DNA from: a candidate division Kazan bacterium
GTDB lineage: Bacteria > Patescibacteriota > Kazan-3B-28
Length of the DNA: 64,000 nucleotides
Direction of reading: 5' to 3'
Assembly: GCA_003647645.1 (NCBI GenBank)
Contig: QMNG01000001.1
Span: 7,938 to 71,937, forward strand
Of the stretch, positions 1,129 to 9,034 are shown piece by piece. Positions within the stretch are counted from its first letter, which is position 1. Every line of letters starts with the position of its first letter. The notes under the pieces were generated by a model, which had not been told where the DNA came from, ran no database searches, and saw only the letters and a program-made list of their open reading frames with translations. The translations under genes and the position numbers were made by a program.

Positions 1129-1527
1129 ATGAATCTTTGGATTATTGGCGTAGCCATCTTGTTGCTGGTGGGAGTACAGTGGCTGGTGTTGGTTTTTGAC
1201 CGAGATCTCCGCAACGCAGGCGTTGTACGCCAGCATCCCGCCGCCGTGGGTATTACACAGTTTACACACATGTTCTTACCGTCGGCGCTGGCCGGTATGG
1301 CCTACTGTCTATTCTGGTTTGGGATTAACTGGAACCTAATGGCAGCTCAGAACTTTGGCTGTGCGGATGTGGTGGGAGCCTCGTCATGGCAGGCTGTCAT
1401 CATGGCGCTGGTCCTGGCATCTATGGGAGGTCTAATGCTCTCCACCCTGGCTTTGTTCATTCCCATCGGCAATGTCCTGCTCTTCCCATTTGTGCCTTAC
1501 TTGCTCTTTAAGAATAGGGGTCAGTAA
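1129..1527 (+). CDS. Small integral membrane protein, unknown function
   Basis: Track ORF 1108..1527; ATG at 1129 gives MNLWIIGVAILLLVG; about 4 hydrophobic helices; tagagt -10-like box at 1098-1103. Confidence 0.55.
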   Translation: MNLWIIGVAILLLVGVQWLVLVFDRDLRNAGVVRQHPAAVGITQFTHMFLPSALAGMAYCLFWFGINWNLMAAQNFGCADVVGASSWQAVIMALVLASMGGLMLSTLALFIPIGNVLLFPFVPYLLFKNRGQ

Positions 1528-1640
1528 TCCTCGCAGTTAAGCCTCTGCGTATCAAAAGGCTTTTTTGTTTTTATTTAAGGGGTAGGGAATAGTATATACT
1601 ATTTATATTTACTTTTAGCAAAGGATTCTTTGCGTCACCA

Positions 1641-1867
1641 TTTTGCTTGCCCAAACGGCTAGTTTCCCAAGCGCTTGACGGCGCTTGACCCGTCGGGACT
1701 TTTCTAGAAAAGTCCCCCCAAAAGTCCTCCGCAGTCGTTTTCGCTATTCATAAAAGAAAACTACCTTTCCAGCTCTCGCTGAACTCGGTTGCCGCGGCGA
1801 CCTCAAACATGCAGCCCCGCCAGCGGCAGTTTTCTTAATGAATTACGCTCAAACTCCAATGCTCGAT
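1641..1867. repeat. Copy A of a ~225-nt structured intergenic element (possible ncRNA), second copy at 28451-28670
   Basis: Shared blocks TTTGCTTGCCC, CAAAAGTCCTCCGC, CTGAACTCG, GCTCAAAC, AATGCTCGAT; hairpin 1695-1716 and helix 1747-1762:1828-1842 retained in copy B through compensatory substitutions. Confidence 0.6.
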
Positions 1868-2083
1868 AGGGAATAAAAAGCTTCCCGCTCTAGGAGCGGG
1901 TAACTTATTGAGATTTATATTTAAGTAGGTTGTTATATGCTGTCAATGTGAAGTGCCAGTCTAACCCTCAGGGAAGCTAATATCATTGACCATCCAATAT
2001 CGTCTGGCGGAATGGGTTGACAGAGCATTTAAGTATGGTATGCTTAGACTGATATCCATTTATCAGGGTGAAAGGAATAAAAT

Positions 2084-2437
2084 ATGAAAGCGGATAAGGA
2101 GATTCTAGGTTTGGTCGCTCAAATGCGCAATATGCTCGACTCACTGGAGTTAAAGTTGGGTGTCAGCCAGGGCAACGACAGGCCGTCAAAGCAAGTGCAG
2201 AAGCCACGAGCCGATTATTCGGGGCCAAGTGGCGGTGTGAGGCTGCTGTTAGATGAAGACTTCTTTAAAACTCCTAAAGCTGTGTCGGCGGTAGAGAGTC
2301 GTCTGCGTCAAGAGGGACGTCACTATCGGCAATCTGTGGTTGCAATGGCCTTATTGCGTGCTGTGCGCAAGCGTCTGTTGACTAGGTTACCATCTGGCGG
2401 CAAGAAAGGACAGTGGAGTTATGTTGAAAGAAAGTAG
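2084..2437 (+). CDS. Small coiled-coil plus winged-helix-like protein, paralog 1 of a tandem family
   Basis: 117 aa; N-terminal amphipathic helix, Gly-rich linker SGPSGGVRLLL, C-terminal module ending KKGQWSYVERK; paralogous to 2421..2768 and 3056..3370; TTGACA at 2018-2023 upstream. Confidence 0.6.
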   Translation: MKADKEILGLVAQMRNMLDSLELKLGVSQGNDRPSKQVQKPRADYSGPSGGVRLLLDEDFFKTPKAVSAVESRLRQEGRHYRQSVVAMALLRAVRKRLLTRLPSGGKKGQWSYVERK

Positions 2438-2768
2438 TATTGTAAAAAAACTGCATGAATTATCTAAGCGGGTAGCCCGGCTGGAGCGATTGCTGATACT
2501 AGGCCGCCCGTCTGAGTCGGCTAGCGATCCAGTAGGGAGAGCTCCAAGTGGTTTTCGCGGCTCAACGGGAGGTGTCCGGCTGCTTATTAAAGATGGAGTC
2601 TTTAGGCAGAAGTGTCAGCTATCTGATGTAGTGGCTGCACTGACCAAAAGGGGTTATCACTACAGCCGTCAGGCAGTGCATGAGTCTCTGAGAAGACTCT
2701 CTTCGACTCATGGTCCGCTTGTGTCGTTAAAAGAAAAGGGCCGTAAAGTTTATGTTGAGAGGAGATAA
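2421..2768 (+). CDS. Small coiled-coil plus winged-helix-like protein, paralog 2
   Basis: 115 aa; GSTGGVRLLIKDGVF...KRGYHYSRQAVHESLRRL...KGRKVYVERR aligns with paralog 1; 17-nt overlap with the upstream gene suggests coupling. Confidence 0.6.
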   Translation: MLKESSIVKKLHELSKRVARLERLLILGRPSESASDPVGRAPSGFRGSTGGVRLLIKDGVFRQKCQLSDVVAALTKRGYHYSRQAVHESLRRLSSTHGPLVSLKEKGRKVYVERR

Positions 2769-2770
2769 TT

Positions 2771-2986
2771 GTGAAAAGAAAAAGGTCGAAAACGAGTCTC
2801 GCTGAAAAACTTATCAAAGTTATTAATAAGGAGCCGAGGTCTGCGGAGGAGCTTCGGCGAGATTTGAAAGACAGGTTTGGGTACAATGAGAAACCAGAGG
2901 ATATTAGAGTAAATCTACTTTACCTGTTGCGGCGGGAGAGGATTAAGCGGAAGAAGAGTGAGAAAATATACAAGTACCATATTTAA
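2771..2986 (+). CDS. Minimal basic winged-helix-like protein, paralog 3 (lacks N-terminal helix)
   Basis: 71 aa, GTG start 2771 preceded by gagaggag; EELRRDLKDRFGY...RVNLLYLLRRERIKRKKSEKIYKYHI follows the C-terminal module pattern of its neighbours. Confidence 0.5.
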   Translation: MKRKRSKTSLAEKLIKVINKEPRSAEELRRDLKDRFGYNEKPEDIRVNLLYLLRRERIKRKKSEKIYKYHI

Positions 2987-3003
2987 TTTGAGAATGGCAA
3001 GGT

Positions 3004-3048
3004 CCGAACAATCCAAACAATCCCAACAATCCGAACAATCTGAACATA
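3004..3048. repeat. Five tandem 9-mers CCNAACAAT directly upstream of paralog 4
   Basis: ccgaacaat ccaaacaat cccaacaat ccgaacaat ctgaacata, ending 7 nt before ATG 3056; position fits an operator or iteron-like array over the promoter. Confidence 0.7.
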
Positions 3049-3055
3049 TAAGACT

Positions 3056-3370
3056 ATGAACAAGAAGATCATTCAATCACTTATCAAACGGATAAAACGA
3101 CTCGAGAATCACGTCTTCGGCAGCAAAAAATCACAGCGCCCGCAGAAAAGAAAAAGTAAAAGCTTGCCGGATATTATTCTTGGGCTGAGGGATTCAGGAT
3201 TCTTTAAGCAACCCCGGACAGTAAAATCAGTTTATGATAAGTTACTGCTGATGTATCATACTGATCTTAAAAAGGTAGATACAGCTCTTCATAGGCTCCG
3301 GGTTCGAAAAAAACTTCGGATAACTCATTTGTCAGATGGAAAGAAGGAGGTGAAAGCGTATGTCTGGTAA
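3056..3370 (+). CDS. Small coiled-coil plus winged-helix-like protein, paralog 4
   Basis: 104 aa; IKRIKRLENHVFG helix, LPDIILGLRDSGFFKQPRTVKSVYDKLL...GKKEVKAYVW matches paralogs 1 and 2. Confidence 0.6.
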   Translation: MNKKIIQSLIKRIKRLENHVFGSKKSQRPQKRKSKSLPDIILGLRDSGFFKQPRTVKSVYDKLLLMYHTDLKKVDTALHRLRVRKKLRITHLSDGKKEVKAYVW

Positions 3371-4145
3371 AGTGACCGATACCGAGGCGAAGATAAAGAG
3401 TATTCTTCAGCAAGAGTTTGAGAAGGGCCGCATAGATGCAATCTTAAAGCATTTCACTACTGCGAAGGAAAAATATAGAGAGGGAGATTGGGATGGTTCT
3501 ATATCTAAGTCCAGCAAGTTTGTCGAAGCGGTAACAAAGATGCTATTGCGGTTTTGTGGTAAGACCCTACCAAGAACAAGGCAATTTCGTGCTGGGCAAT
3601 CTTTGCGCAATCTTGAAAATGAACCTATTTCAATTGATGACGCAGTACGTATTGTAATACCGAAATGCTGTTTGTTTATTTACGAAATAGCCAGTAACCG
3701 AGGAGCTCGTCATGATACTGATGAAGTAGATGCGAATGAGATTGACGCCGGTGTAATCGACATATCAATATCTTGGGTTTTAGGCGAACTGATTCGTTTC
3801 GCTAGCAAGAGAAGTAAAGACCCCGAAGAAGCACAGGAACTAGTAGAAGCGCTCGCTGGCAAAACATATCCATTTTTCGAAGAAATCGAGGATAGATTCT
3901 ACGTCAATATTGAAGGATTAAGTGCCAAAAAAACTGCTTTACTTATTCTTTATGGTCGCTATTCTCGTAGGACTAAACCAGATATCTTGCTAAAGTTAGT
4001 GGAACGACATGGGTTTTCGTCCAAAAATGCTGACATGGCTGTCAGGCGTGTAAAGAAGATTTGTGATATTAACGAGCGCGGTATGAGGTTGAGAAGCATT
4101 GGTATAAAGAAGGCTGAAATGCTCTTAACCCAATTTGGTAAATAA
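3360..4145 (+). CDS. Helical N-terminal domain (weak HEPN-like NRGARHD signature) fused to the same winged-helix-like C-terminal module
   Basis: 261 aa; aaggagg 3344-3350 before ATG 3360, 11-nt overlap with paralog 4; C-terminus LLILYGRYSRRTKPDILLKLVERHGFSSKNADMAVRRVKK follows the module pattern; ccctcc...ggaggg hairpin plus T-run at ~4173-4210. Confidence 0.5.
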   Translation: MSGKVTDTEAKIKSILQQEFEKGRIDAILKHFTTAKEKYREGDWDGSISKSSKFVEAVTKMLLRFCGKTLPRTRQFRAGQSLRNLENEPISIDDAVRIVIPKCCLFIYEIASNRGARHDTDEVDANEIDAGVIDISISWVLGELIRFASKRSKDPEEAQELVEALAGKTYPFFEEIEDRFYVNIEGLSAKKTALLILYGRYSRRTKPDILLKLVERHGFSSKNADMAVRRVKKICDINERGMRLRSIGIKKAEMLLTQFGK

Positions 4146-4232
4146 TACTAGAGATTGGCTTCGGGGGTGCATAGCCCTCCCTAGCTCATAGAGCGACGGA
4201 GGGGTTTTTGATTTGGGCCTACCTACTGGAGG

Positions 4233-4252
4233 TAGGGTATAATTCAGTTATG
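4233..4252 (+). promoter_or_regulatory. Leaderless-type promoter of the SIR2-like gene
   Basis: tagggTATAAT (4238-4243) then 6 nt then ATG 4250. Confidence 0.5.
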
Positions 4253-5473
4253 AAGGAGAAAGTTAAAACAGTTCTAATTTTTGGAGCGGGGGCATCTTAT
4301 GATTGTGGAAACCCGACAAAAATTCGGATACCTATGTCTAGAGATATCTACAACATGGGTGCCATCGACAAAATTGATCAGTTACGATCAGCCCCTACAA
4401 CTTGGTCGTATATCCGGTCTAGGGCATCATCTGTGCAGATTACTATACAAACAGAGTTCGAGGGTAATACCGAAAAGTATTTGGATAGTGTTTGGGATAA
4501 TCCAAGAGAACAACAGTTTATGATTGATTCTCTATACTATTTGCGCCATCTGACATCGGTAGGAGAAGTTATATCTGGTAATACTAATAATTATCAAAAG
4601 TTATTTGACTGGGTTATTAAGAAAGAAGAAATCCGACTTTCTGACGTAATAAGCTTCAATTATGATACTATCTTAGATAGCACTTTTTGCCCAAGATTCG
4701 GGATTGAAGATAATCCCAAAAGCTATCTTGGTTTGAATCGTTCTGGGCCACGATTGATTAAGCCACATGGCTCTGCCAACTGGTATGTAAAAATCCCAGT
4801 ACCAGATCATGGCAAGTTGGCGCAGTATAGCGATTCCCACAGAAGATCAATGGAAAAAGTTCGTTTATGTAGAGACTTTATTCTGCAGCCAGATATAGAT
4901 ATAGATCAAATCAATGTGGGTGATGCTGGCAGGATTTCCGGACTCATAAGTGACCCAGGGAATATCTTGCCCAGACCCTGCATCATACTACCGTTATTAT
5001 CTAAAGCGGTTGTTACGAACGTATTCCCCGAGATTATGCAAGCGACTGAGGATGCTATTAGTAAAGCTGACCACCTGATCCTAATTGGTTACAGGGGGGC
5101 GGATGACGATTTCACTAACATTTTGTCTAACAGATTATCAGTCGGCAGTAAAAAACTTGTGGTATCTACGGTTGGTATGGGTAGTGCAGTTGAGATACGA
5201 GATACATTAGTAAAGCTTGGTGCCACCGGTTTGGCAGGGTTTGCTTTCACAGGTGGTTTTACTAGATTCATAGATGTTCTAAACAGTCAGTATTCTCAAT
5301 CCGTTGTGGATTTTGTTGGTGATGGTTATCTTTGTGTAAGAGACTTCAGGATAAAAAAAGACTTTATGGAGCAGTGGGTAGCTAGACCTATTAGCGATTC
5401 AGGTGTTTTATTGAGTAACGATTTTGAGAGACTAGTCAAAGGTCAGGAAATAGCTCCCGGGGCTGGTTTTTGA
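4250..5473 (+). CDS. SIR2_2-like (SIR2-family, non-sirtuin) protein, candidate NADase effector
   Basis: LIFGAGASYDCG, SFNYDTILDS, IKPHGSANWY and LILIGYRGADDDF in the order typical of the SIR2-like defence domain; no sirtuin CxxC zinc ribbon; in-frame ATG 4250 preferred over TTG 4208. Confidence 0.65.
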   Translation: MKEKVKTVLIFGAGASYDCGNPTKIRIPMSRDIYNMGAIDKIDQLRSAPTTWSYIRSRASSVQITIQTEFEGNTEKYLDSVWDNPREQQFMIDSLYYLRHLTSVGEVISGNTNNYQKLFDWVIKKEEIRLSDVISFNYDTILDSTFCPRFGIEDNPKSYLGLNRSGPRLIKPHGSANWYVKIPVPDHGKLAQYSDSHRRSMEKVRLCRDFILQPDIDIDQINVGDAGRISGLISDPGNILPRPCIILPLLSKAVVTNVFPEIMQATEDAISKADHLILIGYRGADDDFTNILSNRLSVGSKKLVVSTVGMGSAVEIRDTLVKLGATGLAGFAFTGGFTRFIDVLNSQYSQSVVDFVGDGYLCVRDFRIKKDFMEQWVARPISDSGVLLSNDFERLVKGQEIAPGAGF

Positions 5474-5475
5474 TT

Positions 5476-5495
5476 TGGGGTATAATTGGAATATG
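5476..5495 (+). promoter_or_regulatory. Leaderless-type promoter of the methyltransferase gene
   Basis: tggggTATAAT (5481-5486) then 6 nt then ATG 5493; SIR2-like gene stop TGA at 5471-5473. Confidence 0.5.
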
Positions 5496-6635
5496 GGGAC
5501 AACAAAGAGGCAATTGGGCCAATTTTTTACAACCAATGCAGACTATATTTTGCAGGGTTTTGAGCGATATGTAGCAGGTAAAGATGTAACGGATCCTTTT
5601 GCTGGTGGAAGTGATCTTCTGTTATGGTCTCAAAATCACGGTGCTAAAACGGTGCGGGGGTTTGATTGCGATAAAAGATATGTAGATGATCGGATTATTT
5701 TTAAAAACGATTCAATCAATTCTCCTGGCAGTTATAAGTTTGTATGTACTAATCCTCCCTACCTACACAAAAACAAAGCCGACAAATTAACCAAAAAGTT
5801 ATTTTTTAATGGGGATCATTCGGTCTTTGAGGACCTGTACCAGGTATCGATATTTTCTATGCTGGGAGCAGAGGAAGGTATTGTTATAATACCACTCAAC
5901 TTCCTCTGTGCTGATAATTCTCGTAAGATACGGAATTTATTCTTTGAAAAGTTTAAGATTGTTAAGCTTAATATTTTTACTGAGCAAGTTTTTCACGACA
6001 CGACTTACAATGTAATCTCTTTCTATTTTAGGAGGTGTAAGAAAACAGCTGATGTATATACAATCCCCGCATTGGTTTTACCAGAGCATAGAGAAATATC
6101 ATTGACTATCGAAAAACGGCTAGGCTGGAAATTAGGTGGTGAGTTCTTAGCACGGGTGAATGGTACCAACAGTAAAGGAGTCATGCGACTCACTCAAGAT
6201 ATGATTCATGAGGGTCCCCATCAAGTTCTGCTATCCGTACAGGATTTGAAACAGGCAGCAATGTGTTGGGTAGACAGCTCCACGAAGAAGATGCTTAAGC
6301 AGAATATTCTACTTTTAAGAGCGATAGATAGTAAGAATAGTCATAAAATTAGGTTAGAAGACATTAGACAGTATGGTGTAGATGGATTAGTGGGTAAATC
6401 AACTTCACGCAATATGGCTCACATTATATTCAAGGAACCGTTGTCAATTAATGAACAGTTAGAGCTGATAGATAAATTCAATAGCATGTTAAATAAACAT
6501 CGCGAAAGATATTTTTCATTCTTTCTGACCAATTATCGTGATAACAACCGGAAAAGAATTTCTTTTGATTTCACATATAAATTCATAAATTATTTAATCT
6601 CCTCACAGCGGACGTTGGAAGGAGTAATGAGATAA
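5493..6635 (+). CDS. N6-adenine DNA methyltransferase (gamma-class, NPPY)
   Basis: LGQFFT, DPFAGGSDLL (motif I FxGxG) followed by CTNPPYLHKNKA (motif IV). Confidence 0.8.
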   Translation: MGTTKRQLGQFFTTNADYILQGFERYVAGKDVTDPFAGGSDLLLWSQNHGAKTVRGFDCDKRYVDDRIIFKNDSINSPGSYKFVCTNPPYLHKNKADKLTKKLFFNGDHSVFEDLYQVSIFSMLGAEEGIVIIPLNFLCADNSRKIRNLFFEKFKIVKLNIFTEQVFHDTTYNVISFYFRRCKKTADVYTIPALVLPEHREISLTIEKRLGWKLGGEFLARVNGTNSKGVMRLTQDMIHEGPHQVLLSVQDLKQAAMCWVDSSTKKMLKQNILLLRAIDSKNSHKIRLEDIRQYGVDGLVGKSTSRNMAHIIFKEPLSINEQLELIDKFNSMLNKHRERYFSFFLTNYRDNNRKRISFDFTYKFINYLISSQRTLEGVMR

Positions 6636-6636
6636 G

Positions 6637-7455
6637 TTGCAAATAATTGTTATGAATAAATGGGTTAAAAAGAGTCTGGATTTAGCAGCTTCCCCCGGTT
6701 ATCTGGATAAGTTACATGACATCTACCCTGTAGACATCAGTGTGGTGCGACAGATAGGTTCCCAAGTAGAGCAGTCTATCAAAGCGGCTTTTAAAAGTAG
6801 GAATAAAGAGAGATTGATAACGACTTTGCTTGATTTAGAGCGTTTTCCAATTGATGAACCATATGTAGGATTTATTCGTAAGAACAGAGCTGCACTGGGC
6901 AGGAATCCCAAGACAGTACGACGTATCTACAGAAGGCTCGAAGAACTAGGTTTGCCAGGTATTCTCGAAGGCGTGAGTAAACCACCGTCACCATCGCGTA
7001 AAATGGGCCCCGCATTTAAAAAATGGCTACACAGTCTCGGATATCCTGTTCTAAGTGCTAGGGAGATTTTAGAGACCAGAGAAAAAATTGCTGTTTTGTC
7101 AGGCAGTGATGCTGCTCTCAAGAAATTTGCCAAACATGAATTAGGATACCGAGGAGGTAAAGGATTAGACTTGGTTATGAAGGTGGGAGAAACATTCTTG
7201 ATCGGAGAAGCAAAATTTATGTCAACTGGCGGCGGAACTCAGGATAAAAGTTTTCGAGAGAGTTTACGTTTTGTCAAGAGTTCTAGTGGTAATGCGATAC
7301 GAATTGCGGTTATGGATGGCATTGCCTGGGCACGACCCTTTCAACAGAGGTCATCCAAATCACTGACTTTATATAAAAGCGTGGAGAAATTGGGTGAAAA
7401 GCAGGTAGTGCTGAGTGCCTTATTGCTCAAACAATTTATTAATTCATTGGCATAG
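6637..7455 (+). CDS. Putative type II restriction endonuclease (PD-(D/E)xK)
   Basis: Immediately follows the MTase; GLDLVMKVGETFLIGEAKF gives D...(E)xK spacing; start TTG 6637 or ATG 6652. Confidence 0.5.
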   Translation: MQIIVMNKWVKKSLDLAASPGYLDKLHDIYPVDISVVRQIGSQVEQSIKAAFKSRNKERLITTLLDLERFPIDEPYVGFIRKNRAALGRNPKTVRRIYRRLEELGLPGILEGVSKPPSPSRKMGPAFKKWLHSLGYPVLSAREILETREKIAVLSGSDAALKKFAKHELGYRGGKGLDLVMKVGETFLIGEAKFMSTGGGTQDKSFRESLRFVKSSSGNAIRIAVMDGIAWARPFQQRSSKSLTLYKSVEKLGEKQVVLSALLLKQFINSLA

Positions 7456-7471
7456 AAATTGCTCGGATTGT

Positions 7472-7499
7472 CCAACGGCTCAACGTGTTGAGCCGTTGG
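7472..7499 (+). terminator. Palindromic hairpin closing the accessory block
   Basis: ccaacggctcaac gt gttgagccgttgg followed by ggttttgg; near-identical palindrome again at 7862-7885. Confidence 0.55.
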
Positions 7500-7504
7500 G
7501 GTTT

Positions 7505-7524
7505 TGGGGTAGAATAAAACCATG
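7505..7524 (+). promoter_or_regulatory. Leaderless-type promoter
   Basis: tggggTAGAAT (7510-7515) then 6 nt then ATG 7522. Confidence 0.5.
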
Positions 7525-7863
7525 CATTGGTGGGTTTGGTTTATTTTAGGTTTTGTGGTGGCGTTGGGTGTTGTGGCCTGGGCTTTACTTAGCGTACGGG
7601 GCAAGAATGACCCGTCTACGCCGAAGGCTTCGCCGGGCCTGCCTGATGACTTGATAAGCCATCAGGCGCGGGAAAAGGCAGAGAACCTAGGGAAGATCAA
7701 GGGTTTGTTTGCAAGGCAAACAAAAGTGGCGAATGATGATGTGCAGACACTCTTGGGCATCTCCGATGCCACTGTGACGAGGTATTTGGATGAGTTAGAA
7801 AAACAGGGAATTATCCGGCAGGTCGGGCAGACTGGCAAGCATGTTTATTACGAAAAAATCTAA
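7522..7863 (+). CDS. Membrane-anchored winged-helix (DeoR/MarR-like HTH) protein
   Basis: 113 aa; N-terminal TM WWVWFILGFVVALGVVAWALL; C-terminal LLGISDATVTRYLDELEKQGIIRQVGQTGKHVYY. Confidence 0.55.
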   Translation: MHWWVWFILGFVVALGVVAWALLSVRGKNDPSTPKASPGLPDDLISHQAREKAENLGKIKGLFARQTKVANDDVQTLLGISDATVTRYLDELEKQGIIRQVGQTGKHVYYEKI

Positions 7864-7924
7864 CGGCTCAACGCGTTGAGCCGTTGAGCTTATCCACCCA
7901 AGCGCGAGGCTTTTGACGGGGTTT

Positions 7925-7944
7925 TGGAGTAAAATAAAACTATG
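7925..7944 (+). promoter_or_regulatory. Leaderless-type promoter
   Basis: tggagTAAAAT (7930-7935) then 6 nt then ATG 7942. Confidence 0.5.
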
Positions 7945-8328
7945 GAAAATAAAATCAAGAAAATTAGGAAACTAGCGCAGGATGTTTATAAATCCTTGGG
8001 TTCAGGATTTCCGGAGGTGGTTTATGATCGGGCGATGCAGGTAGGGTTGAGATTGCAGAAGATAAAATATGATAGCCAGAAAGTTGTTGAGCTGAAGTAT
8101 AAAGATCACTATGTCGGAGAAGGTTTCCCGGACATTATTGTGAACTTCGGCAAAGATAAGATGGTGGTGGAGCTGAAAGCTGTCGGCGGGACTTTGGGCG
8201 GTGCCGAAGAGCAGCAGATAAAATCCTACATGAAGTTGCTGAAAATTAAGAATGGCCTGCTTATTAACTTTCAACAACCCAGAAAAGACGGTAAGACCAG
8301 TCTGGAGATTAAGGAGATAGAGGGTTAA
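7942..8328 (+). CDS. GxxExxY-family PD-(D/E)xK nuclease-like protein
   Basis: 128 aa; LGSGFPEVVYDRAM (GxxExxY), EGFPDIIVNFGKDKMVVELKAV (D...ExK). Confidence 0.75.
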   Translation: MENKIKKIRKLAQDVYKSLGSGFPEVVYDRAMQVGLRLQKIKYDSQKVVELKYKDHYVGEGFPDIIVNFGKDKMVVELKAVGGTLGGAEEQQIKSYMKLLKIKNGLLINFQQPRKDGKTSLEIKEIEG

Positions 8329-8332
8329 TGGA

Positions 8333-8367
8333 GAATGAAGAATTAAGAATTAAGAATTAAGAATTAA
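8333..8367. repeat. Tandem heptamer repeat GAATKAA x5
   Basis: gaatgaa gaattaa gaattaa gaattaa gaattaa just after the GxxExxY stop; related run at 32629-32649. Confidence 0.8.
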
Positions 8368-8395
8368 GACATTGGTATATTTTCTAAAATTAATT

Positions 8396-9034
8396 ATGAA
8401 TAAAACATTACTTTGGATTATTGGAGCTGTCGTTATAGTTGGAGTCGGCGTAGGTAGTTACTATTGGGGTGCTTGGGGAACTTCCCCGGCGGAAGTTGAA
8501 ATGAATGGTTCCGATGAATCAGTTCAACCGATCGGAGATATCGCTGATCAAACTGCTGGTCAAAACACTTCTCAAAATACTTCCCCAATCATTGAGGATG
8601 AGGAAAGTCCTGTCGGGGAATCAACCACACCTACGATTACTCCTGCCAAATCAAATTGGAAGACCTATTATTCCGAAAAGTTAAAGATTGGTTTTAGCTA
8701 TCCGCCAGAAGTGGAGGATCGGCCCTATGATGGTGCACATTTTGCCGATGTGTTGGTTAAAGAGAGTGGTAATAAAATAACATTTGTAGTAGGTGGTTAT
8801 GATGATGAGATAATTGAACGGCGAGATGATAAGCTCCCTAGTGAAACGGCTCGAGAAGCTTTTGATCGTTTAGTAGTTGGCGCCTGGGAAGCTGAGGTTG
8901 GCATGCCAATAGTAGAACCTTGGTATGATCCTAATTATCCGACTACTCTCCTTGTGCTTTGGGTAGGACATGATAGCTTGATTGGGGTTGATAATCACGA
9001 AATTATTAGAAATTCGATAAAAGTTTTTGGTTAA
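8396..9034 (+). CDS. Membrane-anchored or secreted hypothetical protein
   Basis: Track ORF 8372..9034; ATG 8396 gives MNKTLLWIIGAVVIVGVGV signal-anchor; taaaat 8385-8390 lies 5 nt upstream. Confidence 0.5.
   Translation: MNKTLLWIIGAVVIVGVGVGSYYWGAWGTSPAEVEMNGSDESVQPIGDIADQTAGQNTSQNTSPIIEDEESPVGESTTPTITPAKSNWKTYYSEKLKIGFSYPPEVEDRPYDGAHFADVLVKESGNKITFVVGGYDDEIIERRDDKLPSETAREAFDRLVVGAWEAEVGMPIVEPWYDPNYPTTLLVLWVGHDSLIGVDNHEIIRNSIKVFG

Follow-up and report, generated by a model that had tools for sequence, protein, structure and literature searches.

A conserved module of predicted winged-helix proteins and a nuclease-like effector near restriction-modification genes, with a tandem 9-mer array seen in one genome

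The window studied here, a 64,000-nucleotide (nt) stretch of DNA from a candidate division Kazan bacterium (GenBank assembly GCA_003647645.1, contig QMNG01000001.1, positions 7,938 to 71,937 of the forward strand), carries four short consecutive genes, labelled c1, c2, c3 and c4, that run into a longer effector-like gene labelled D. The order of genes at the locus is c1, c2, c3, c4, D, a SIR2-like gene, a methylase and an endonuclease. An earlier, sequence-only reading of the window had drawn attention to four consecutive open reading frames (ORFs) of 117, 115, 71 and 104 amino acids (aa), to a 17-nt overlap of the first two, and to a short repeat array in front of the last. All four ORFs and the overlap are present where that reading had placed them. 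The small proteins are discussed below as winged helix-turn-helix (wHTH) proteins, and the features of the module are as follows.

2017..2044, + strand: promoter-like site TTGACA-16-TGnTATGCT upstream of c1, with 10/12 consensus matches and an extended -10 TG
2084..2437, + strand: c1, A-type small subunit, 117 aa, with a predicted N-terminal helix, disordered basic linker and C-terminal wHTH; locus tag DRH29_00055
2421..2768, + strand: c2, B-type small subunit, 115 aa, predicted architecture as c1, 17-nt overlap with c1; locus tag DRH29_00060
2771..2986, + strand: c3, 71 aa, GTG start behind GGAG, without the N-terminal helix and linker
2994..3059, + strand: 21-codon mini-ORF MARSEQSKQSQQSEQSEHIRL, which spans the 9-mer array
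3004..3048, no strand assigned: five tandem 9-mers inside an insertion of ~60 nt (~2996-3055)
3056..3370, + strand: c4, small subunit, 104 aa, predicted architecture as c1 and c2, without a Shine-Dalgarno sequence, 11-nt overlap with D; locus tag DRH29_00070
3360..4145, + strand: D, effector-like, 261 aa, with a predicted HEPN-like N-domain and C-terminal wHTH; locus tag DRH29_00075

Judged only by its match to the consensus, the site at 2017..2044 is likely to be the promoter of the operon. Exact protein matches, from which the locus tags are taken, place the window in candidate division Kazan, within the candidate phyla radiation. Loci with relatives of these genes, on metagenome or genome contigs, are labelled L001-L044, and numbers such as L004_119 denote their proteins.

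Conservation of the gene set

Each of the c1-, c2-, c3- and c4-type genes has its own orthologs elsewhere (40-75% identity), and their order is kept. In L016/L017 (identical in L033, and Paceibacterota by source name), genes of 120, 110, 77, 109 and 260 aa stand against the 117, 115, 71, 104 and 261 aa of the window, with identities for L016 of 53% for c1, 45% for c2, 68% for c3, 40% for c4 and 68% for D. Other c1 orthologs are 61% identical (L001_122 and L004_119). Those of c2 are 52-59% identical in L001_116 and L004_117 and 42-45% identical in L002, L007, L008, L015 and L016. L001 and L004 both place a c1-type gene before a c2-type gene with the same 17-nt overlap as in the window. A metagenome scan with c3 recovers orthologs at 19 further loci, where it is highly conserved (64-75% identity), and c4 has orthologs in P0013/L006 (59%) and in L016 (40%). 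All four paralog types are found in Paceibacterota, and the c1 and c2 types also occur in Acidobacteriota and on unassigned metagenome contigs. Because each type has orthologs elsewhere in the same order, c1-c4 are old and distinct components of a conserved, uncharacterised operon-type module. They do not form the local tandem expansion suggested by the sequence-only reading.

The family extends well beyond these closest relatives. A remoter gene set of 117, 105-108, 142-147 and 257-264 aa is found in L015 (Ca. Acidoferrum), L002, L007 and L008-L012, and the number of small genes per locus ranges from two to four. A word-indexed search returns 694 family proteins, and an exhaustive search returns 2,360 representatives of 50%-identity clusters at E<=1e-3 (735 at E<=1e-10), nearly all of them standalone proteins of 115-130 aa. 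By source name, family members include Xanthobacteraceae, other Alphaproteobacteria, Acidobacteriota and Bdellovibrionales, to which homologs of D add Paceibacterota and Actinomycetia. A profile scan of genome contigs with the c2 group found one locus.

Curated resources pass over the module. Searches of Pfam, NCBIfam, PADLOC and PHROGs give nothing above threshold for c1-c4 and D, and when orthologs and partner genes are compared with curated models, none covers the small-protein family. PADLOC 2.0 has no match for c1-c4, for D or for the five-gene set of L008; its matches are confined to the SIR2 and restriction-modification genes beside the module and to the PLD-type effector of L032. Sequence-profile searches of the PDB with the family, the c2 group and D return weak or irrelevant matches only, with no HEPN match for D. 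Literature searches for the gene set yield general concepts of HEPN and wHTH proteins linked to restriction-modification (R-M) systems and no description of the module.

The four genes had also been described as diverged copies of one another, which holds for three of them. BLASTP connects c1 with c2 (E=4e-9), c1 with c4 (E=2e-5) and c2 with c4 (E=0.01), and all three match the family hidden Markov model (HMM) at 1e-27 to 8e-19. At the level of sequence, c1, c2 and c4 are demonstrable paralogs. In contrast, c3 has no significant pairwise similarity to c1, c2 or c4 (BLASTP E 1.1-5.2). Its profile alignment by hhalign is weak (E=0.007, probability 5%) and lies in the correct winged-helix register, and it has a weak BlaI-type match (E 0.007). 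Matches to the family HMM are seen for some orthologs of c3 (3e-5 to 9e-4, small database), though not for the c3 of the window itself. At best, c3 would be a remote, helix-less relative of the other three, and weak profile matches are all that point to a wHTH-like fold for it.

Some loci at the margins of the family differ in their surroundings and partners. Distant members (L041/L042 5389-6147; L043/L044) adjoin integrase, transposase or serine recombinase genes, and the partners downstream of distant members vary between a 252-aa protein with Pfam PF27235 (AF_1680) and proteins of 190 and 261 aa. Two subunits of L032, at 2087-2488 (133 aa) and 2726-3205 (159 aa), match PADLOC models of the JetB/MukE-like type (tandem winged-helix, DUF4194) at E 0.007 and 0.016, matches that may be due to chance.

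Predicted folds of the small proteins and their effectors

The wHTH-like character attributed to the small proteins is borne out by a monomer model of c1, which has a predicted DNA-binding fold. Built by AlphaFold2 (AF2) from a 128-sequence family alignment, the model has three parts: a helix (residues 3-24), a disordered segment (26-41) and a winged helix (48-115) whose predicted local distance difference test score (pLDDT) is >90. Its wHTH elements are H48-57, a bridge at 65-66, H67-76, H83-95, E99-103 and E111-115 (pLDDT >90 over 50-117), which together display the H1-beta1-H2-H3-beta2-beta3 topology with a beta-hairpin wing. Foldseek matches of c1 in the PDB are the DNA-binding domains of Fur, Zur, PadR, BlaI, the MarR-type PefR and SmtB. 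These superpose over ~63-70 columns with a root-mean-square deviation of 1.6-3.1 A and probability 0.99-1.0, at E values of only ~0.01 for so short a domain. The family profile likewise meets BlaI in the H2-H3-wing register. The assignment of c1, c2 and c4 as winged-helix proteins is supported by this model and these comparisons.

In c1, c2 and c4 the winged helix is preceded by a short N-terminal amphipathic helix and a disordered basic linker. The N-terminal helix of many small subunits bears a (R/K)(I/L/V)xxLE motif, and the same type of helix is found on partner subunits of 136-161 aa whose C-terminal halves belong to other families. A nearly invariant Trp occupies the last strand of the small-protein family; HARE-HTH domains presumably share this feature. 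UniRef automatically names c2 'HTH HARE-type domain-containing', an assignment that is backed neither by Pfam nor by profile comparison with RpoE delta. The HARE-HTH model (PF05066) has no Pfam match to c1-c4 at E<=1, hhalign gives no meaningful alignment to the N-domain of Bacillus subtilis RpoE delta, and no HARE structure is among the top 50 Foldseek matches of c1. Models of the Xre family (HTH_3/HTH_31) similarly have no Pfam match to c1-c4 at E<=1.

An effector-like gene invariably follows the small genes, and the stop and start codons at the boundary usually overlap. In the window this gene is D, whose AF2 model (pLDDT 90) consists of an all-helical N-domain and a C-terminal winged helix. 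Its top Foldseek matches are the HEPN proteins 1o3u, 2hsb, 1wol and 1ufb (probability 0.95-1.0), with 1o3u at probability 1.00 and a template-modelling score of 0.67 on the target. AbiV and HepT stand lower among the fold matches (6m6w, 9bj5/9bj7). A motif, N113-R114-G115-x-R117-H118-D119, is nearly invariant in D and lies in the loop before H125-149, and distant relatives show RNKRNVAH. The search for homologs of D found 86, some of which were named 'HEPN domain-containing' by the Joint Genome Institute (JGI). From its model and these fold matches, D would have a HEPN-like four-helix up-down bundle joined to a wHTH.

Other modules carry other effectors. One type joins a winged helix to a DUF4145-like HEPN domain with a GDTxAHN motif (weak DUF4145 match, E 0.058), and another joins a winged helix to a PLD-like nuclease with an HDRYILAD motif (PLDc_2, 5.7e-5). 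The PLD-type effector of L032 matches the PADLOC models PDC-S05 (3.4e-9) and DrmC (2.6e-4). The winged helix of an effector can be related to the small proteins themselves, as in L004_171 compared with L004_86 (E 2.5e-13). The junction of c4 and D, TATGTCTGGTAA, where 'YVW*' is read over 'MSGK', occurs at 3357-3370 of the window, at 5998-6011 of L016 and at 525-538 of L006. It is kept at the nucleotide level in L006 despite a different type of effector there, and may serve as a recombination point for effector swapping.

The 9-mer array between c3 and c4

The array consists of five 9-mers in tandem, in the order CCGAACAAT, CCAAACAAT, CCCAACAAT, CCGAACAAT and CTGAACATA, or four perfect CCNAACAAT units followed by CTGAACATA. 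Tandem Repeats Finder (TRF) reports it at 3003-3046 with period 9, 4.9 copies, 88% matches and a score of 67. A pattern of two units is observed 3 times against 0.06 expected, and none of 100 shuffled sequences reaches 3. The five units at 3004-3048, ending 7 nt before the ATG at 3056, are thus present as first described and go far beyond chance. Their stated position at '-10 to -50' is measured from a start codon and not from a transcription start.

Comparison with related loci places the array in an insertion. At the 19 other c3 loci, -4 to 17 nt separate the stop of c3 and the start codon that follows; most of these gaps are 10-11 nt long and take the form TAATTTnnAGAATnATG, and none of the loci contains the array. 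The c4 orthologs of L016 and L006 are preceded by gaps of 11 and 18 nt without a repeat, and the array was not found in the other D-bearing loci examined. The corresponding spacer of the window is 69 nt long and reads TAATTTGAGAAT, GGCAAGGT, the five 9-mers and AAGACT before the ATG of c4; its opening is identical to the TAATTTGAGAAT-ATG of L039. Because relatives have a short junction and the window's spacer opens with the same TAATTTGAGAAT, the array is, by sequence comparison, part of an insertion of ~60 nt (~2996-3055) seen only in this genome. Viral contigs contain neither a relative of c3 nor a copy of the array. A recombination joint at the array was considered from base composition and rejected, as GC content falls gradually from 0.51 in c1 to 0.40 in c3/c4 with no step at the array.

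The start of c4 itself suggests where the repeat came from. Its sequence, ATGAACAAG, matches the unit CCGAACAAT at 6/9 positions, and CTGAACATATAAGAC, the final unit together with its flank, is similar to the beginning of the c4 ortholog of L006, ATGAACATTAAGCC. Since the c4 start resembles the repeat unit, replication slippage of this region is the simplest source, and it is most likely how the array arose. A second array, AGAATTA x5.4 at 8332-8369 (TRF score 69), lies between a PDDEXK_3 gene (7942-8328) and an ORF with its ATG at 8397. This genome may be prone to short arrays in intergenic DNA immediately before genes.

Two reading frames across the array were set aside. An N-terminal extension of c4 is ruled out by an in-frame TGA at 3041-3043, and a minus-strand ORF at 2915-3076 (53 aa), with its repeat-derived SDC/WDC/LDC triplets, is without support and is taken to be spurious.

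The mini-ORF has its ATG at 2994, 7 nt past the stop of c3, which is the place of the following gene's start in relatives, and its TGA, after 21 codons, overlaps the ATG of c4 (ATGA). The 9-nt period of the repeat equals three codons, c4 and its orthologs have no Shine-Dalgarno sequence, and the array region as RNA is less structured than shuffled controls (z = +1.78). An array with a period of three codons, in unstructured RNA and within a 21-codon ORF that leads from the ancestral start to ATGA, may have been tolerated, so that translational coupling through the mini-ORF could persist. A further step would be to regard the array as functional coding sequence, with its S-(E/K/Q)-Q repeats (2994-3059) translated so that ribosomes are led from the stop of c3 to the start of c4. 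The placement of the mini-ORF start and stop, the repeat period, the lack of a Shine-Dalgarno sequence before c4 and its orthologs and the unstructured leader all fit this proposal, but it is doubtful. The repeat unit is free of stops in all three frames, so an open frame comes as no surprise; the ATGA overlap needs only an insertion length that is right modulo 3, with a chance put by rough estimate at 0.2-0.3; and the insertion is unique, which leaves no conservation of the mini-ORF to compare.

Two other accounts of the array fare worse. The sequence-only reading took it for an operator, bound periodically by one or more of the wHTH paralogs and autoregulating c4 and the genes downstream. 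The array is real and non-random, it sits directly upstream of c4 among proteins with a DNA-binding fold, and by opening up the tight c3-c4 junction the insertion makes an internal control point conceivable here. As a feature of the family, however, such an operator does not hold up, with no array at any related locus examined (the 19 c3 loci, L006, L016/L033 and other D-bearing loci), an absence that the sequence-only reading had itself named as counting against its proposal. Neither the array nor its spacer yielded a sigma-70-like site, the only good one being at 2017-2044, and no promoter-like hexamers lie in or around the array. Its AACAAT core does not recur within 1500-4300, the operon promoter region included. 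A 9-bp period would set successive sites on different faces of the helix, and the unrelated 7-mer array 5 kb away makes short intergenic arrays nothing special here. An operator function is very improbable. That the array is an assembly or sequencing artefact is scarcely credible. Short tandem repeats are prone to mis-assembly, but the 45-nt array is shorter than a read, and it is borne by three records, namely the window, a SPAdes contig from ENA and the Logan assembly of SRR6823441, which agree at 100% over 8.4 kb, array included, although they may derive from the same sample.

Restriction-modification context, interpretation and known systems

Beyond D, the locus continues with a SIR2-like gene and a type II R-M pair.

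4208..5473, + strand: SIR2-like gene, 421 aa (PADLOC SIR2 3.6e-8; Pfam SIR2_2 1.4e-4, below cutoff)
5475-6635, + strand: Eco57I-type N6-adenine methylase (Pfam 1.3e-6), one half of the type II R-M pair
6637-7455, + strand: Tsp45I-family endonuclease (Pfam 4.4e-62), the other half of the pair
7522..7863, + strand: transmembrane and wHTH protein, 113 aa (HTH_24 1e-5)

R-M genes adjoin the module at several other loci. In L016/L033, an insert of six genes separates hsdM from hsdS in a type I system; in L039, the module stands between hsdM (N6_Mtase 5e-72) and hsdS (4e-23); and in L036, it is followed by hsdS (1e-25). The module therefore occurs between or next to hsdM/hsdS in three independent contexts. 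In addition, a Dam-class methylase (2e-68) precedes the module of L032, and an N6_N4 methylase follows that of L001. The sequence-only reading had also suggested that the paralogs diversify target recognition like specificity subunits. Because the module adjoins hsdM/hsdS in three contexts, a putative role in DNA recognition stays plausible.

A homolog of the transmembrane and wHTH protein at 7522-7863 lies at the corresponding place after hsdS in L039 (5489-5851, E 2e-15), and the protein may be another recurrent companion of these modules. The SIR2-like gene, missing from the related loci examined, may be a defence gene in its own right. Past the module of L016 comes an additional gene, which encodes a 157-aa protein with a hydrophobic stretch at its end. 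An intergenic cassette occurs twice in the window, at 7471-7524 and 7859-7944, each copy ending at a gene start (7522 and 7942). It is built of a palindrome, CGGCTCAACG(T/C)GTTGAGCCG, followed by GGGGTTTTGG(G/A)GTA(G/A)AATAAAAC(C/T)ATG, and resembles a terminator/promoter-type unit.

The reading that we favour, at a probability of roughly 55%, is that of a conserved multi-subunit module interrupted in this genome by a private 9-mer repeat that is not an operator; it is the mechanism that is least certain. Mechanistically, contacts between their N-terminal helices would bring the small proteins together in a complex that has several winged helices. This complex may bind nucleic acid and may position or gate the effector nuclease D. 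On this view, R-M defence would have in the module an accessory or second-line arm, as proposed for other R-M-linked HEPN proteins such as PrrC. In its most general form, which we put forward tentatively, this describes a widespread modular system (~2,360 family clusters) in which 2-4 winged-helix paralogs, joined by their (R/K)hxxLE helices, would make up a multivalent nucleic-acid sensor. An interchangeable HEPN, DUF4145-like HEPN or PLD effector would be gated by this sensor, and the system would form a second-line or specificity-extending arm of the R-M operons into which it is inserted, often between hsdM and hsdS.

Several observations weigh against the favoured reading. The HEPN fold matches of D have weak E values (0.26-0.73), its Pfam HEPN match is sub-threshold (E 0.034, 14.7 bits against a cutoff of 22), and its NRGxRH motif has a shorter R-to-H spacing than the canonical HEPN Rx4-6H. 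The structure models are single chains of c1 and of D. L015, L002 and L019 have no adjacent R-M genes, so the linkage is frequent and not universal, and the defence function is drawn from genomic context only. As for the array, three identical assemblies give no population evidence for slippage, and the repeat could have acquired a local role in this genome.

Two alternatives concern the small proteins rather than the array. They may be plain transcriptional regulators of the adjacent defence genes and not structural partners of the effector. Their fold is like that of the classical repressors Fur, PadR, BlaI and MarR, the small genes head the operon just after a promoter-like site, and repressors of defence islands are known, RptR reportedly being one. 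Regulation of this kind would not readily account for two to four distinct types kept in a fixed order across phyla, overlapping one another and translationally coupled into the effector, an arrangement that stoichiometric subunits fit better. The effectors also bear a wHTH of their own related to the small proteins, and N-terminal helices with a shared motif are found on subunits with different C-terminal domains. A purely regulatory role is unlikely on these grounds. Toxin-antitoxin function is distinctly less probable; here D would be a toxin of the HEPN type, countered by at least one of the small DNA-binding proteins as an antitoxin that also represses the operon. The HEPN-like fold of D, the antitoxin-first order, the overlapping genes and the mobile-island contexts, with integrases, recombinases, ParE and PIN as neighbours, all recall such systems. 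Type II pairs, however, have one antitoxin rather than three or four conserved and distinct ones, the same set of small genes precedes effectors of the non-HEPN, PLD-like type, and no match to known antitoxin families is found.

The favoured interpretation, a multi-subunit module, describes an R-M-linked nuclease module with putative DNA-binding adaptors, whose architecture is not recognised by the defence catalogues searched. In R-M loci of distant phyla, a sizeable uncurated family keeps several distinct winged-helix subunits in company with exchangeable nuclease effectors. If the small proteins do form a sensor complex, the module would be a new accessory layer of R-M defence and would help to explain the coupling of HEPN or PLD effectors to DNA recognition. 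Defence-system screens miss the module at present, and it offers them, as well as family curation, a concrete target.

Individual parts of the module resemble several known systems. Residues 48-115 of c1 are alike in fold to Fur/Zur, PadR, BlaI/MecI, MarR and ArsR/SmtB, with sequence identities of 10-20%. Unlike these classical repressors, the small proteins have no metal- or ligand-binding dimerisation domain and carry instead a single N-terminal helix and a basic disordered linker; they also occur as paralog sets coupled to a nuclease gene. HARE-HTH (PF05066), known from RpoE delta, ASXL and R-M fusions, is similarly a winged helix found with R-M enzymes, but it has no Pfam, profile or fold match to the small proteins. 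Controller (C) proteins of R-M systems are Xre-type HTH proteins of ~80 aa that bind palindromic C-boxes. Like them, the small proteins of the module are putative DNA binders in R-M loci, and a repeated operator had been proposed here as well, but the fold in the present case is a winged helix and the repeats are direct 9-mers, neither palindromic nor conserved.

Among HEPN systems of the toxin-antitoxin or abortive infection type, HepT-MntA and AbiV resemble the module in the predicted fold of the D N-domain, in compact operons and in mobile contexts. The module differs from them in having several wHTH partners and no nucleotidyltransferase partner, and in the C-terminal wHTH of D. A parallel in genomic position is with R-M-linked HEPN effectors (PrrC/RloC and the DUF4145 type). 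HEPN proteins embedded in R-M operons have been interpreted as a back-up, possibly suicidal, arm for which PrrC is the paradigm (Anantharaman et al. 2013, PMC3710099). As in those systems, a HEPN-like protein is found in or beside R-M operons, including between type I hsd genes, and nuclease domains are interchangeable at the same position. D is without the ABC ATPase of PrrC/RloC and has no sequence match to PrrC, RloC or any above-threshold Pfam HEPN model. Sets of small winged-helix partners are not described in that HEPN survey (PMC3710099), and it is the 2-4 dedicated small winged-helix subunits preceding the effector that set the module of the window apart.

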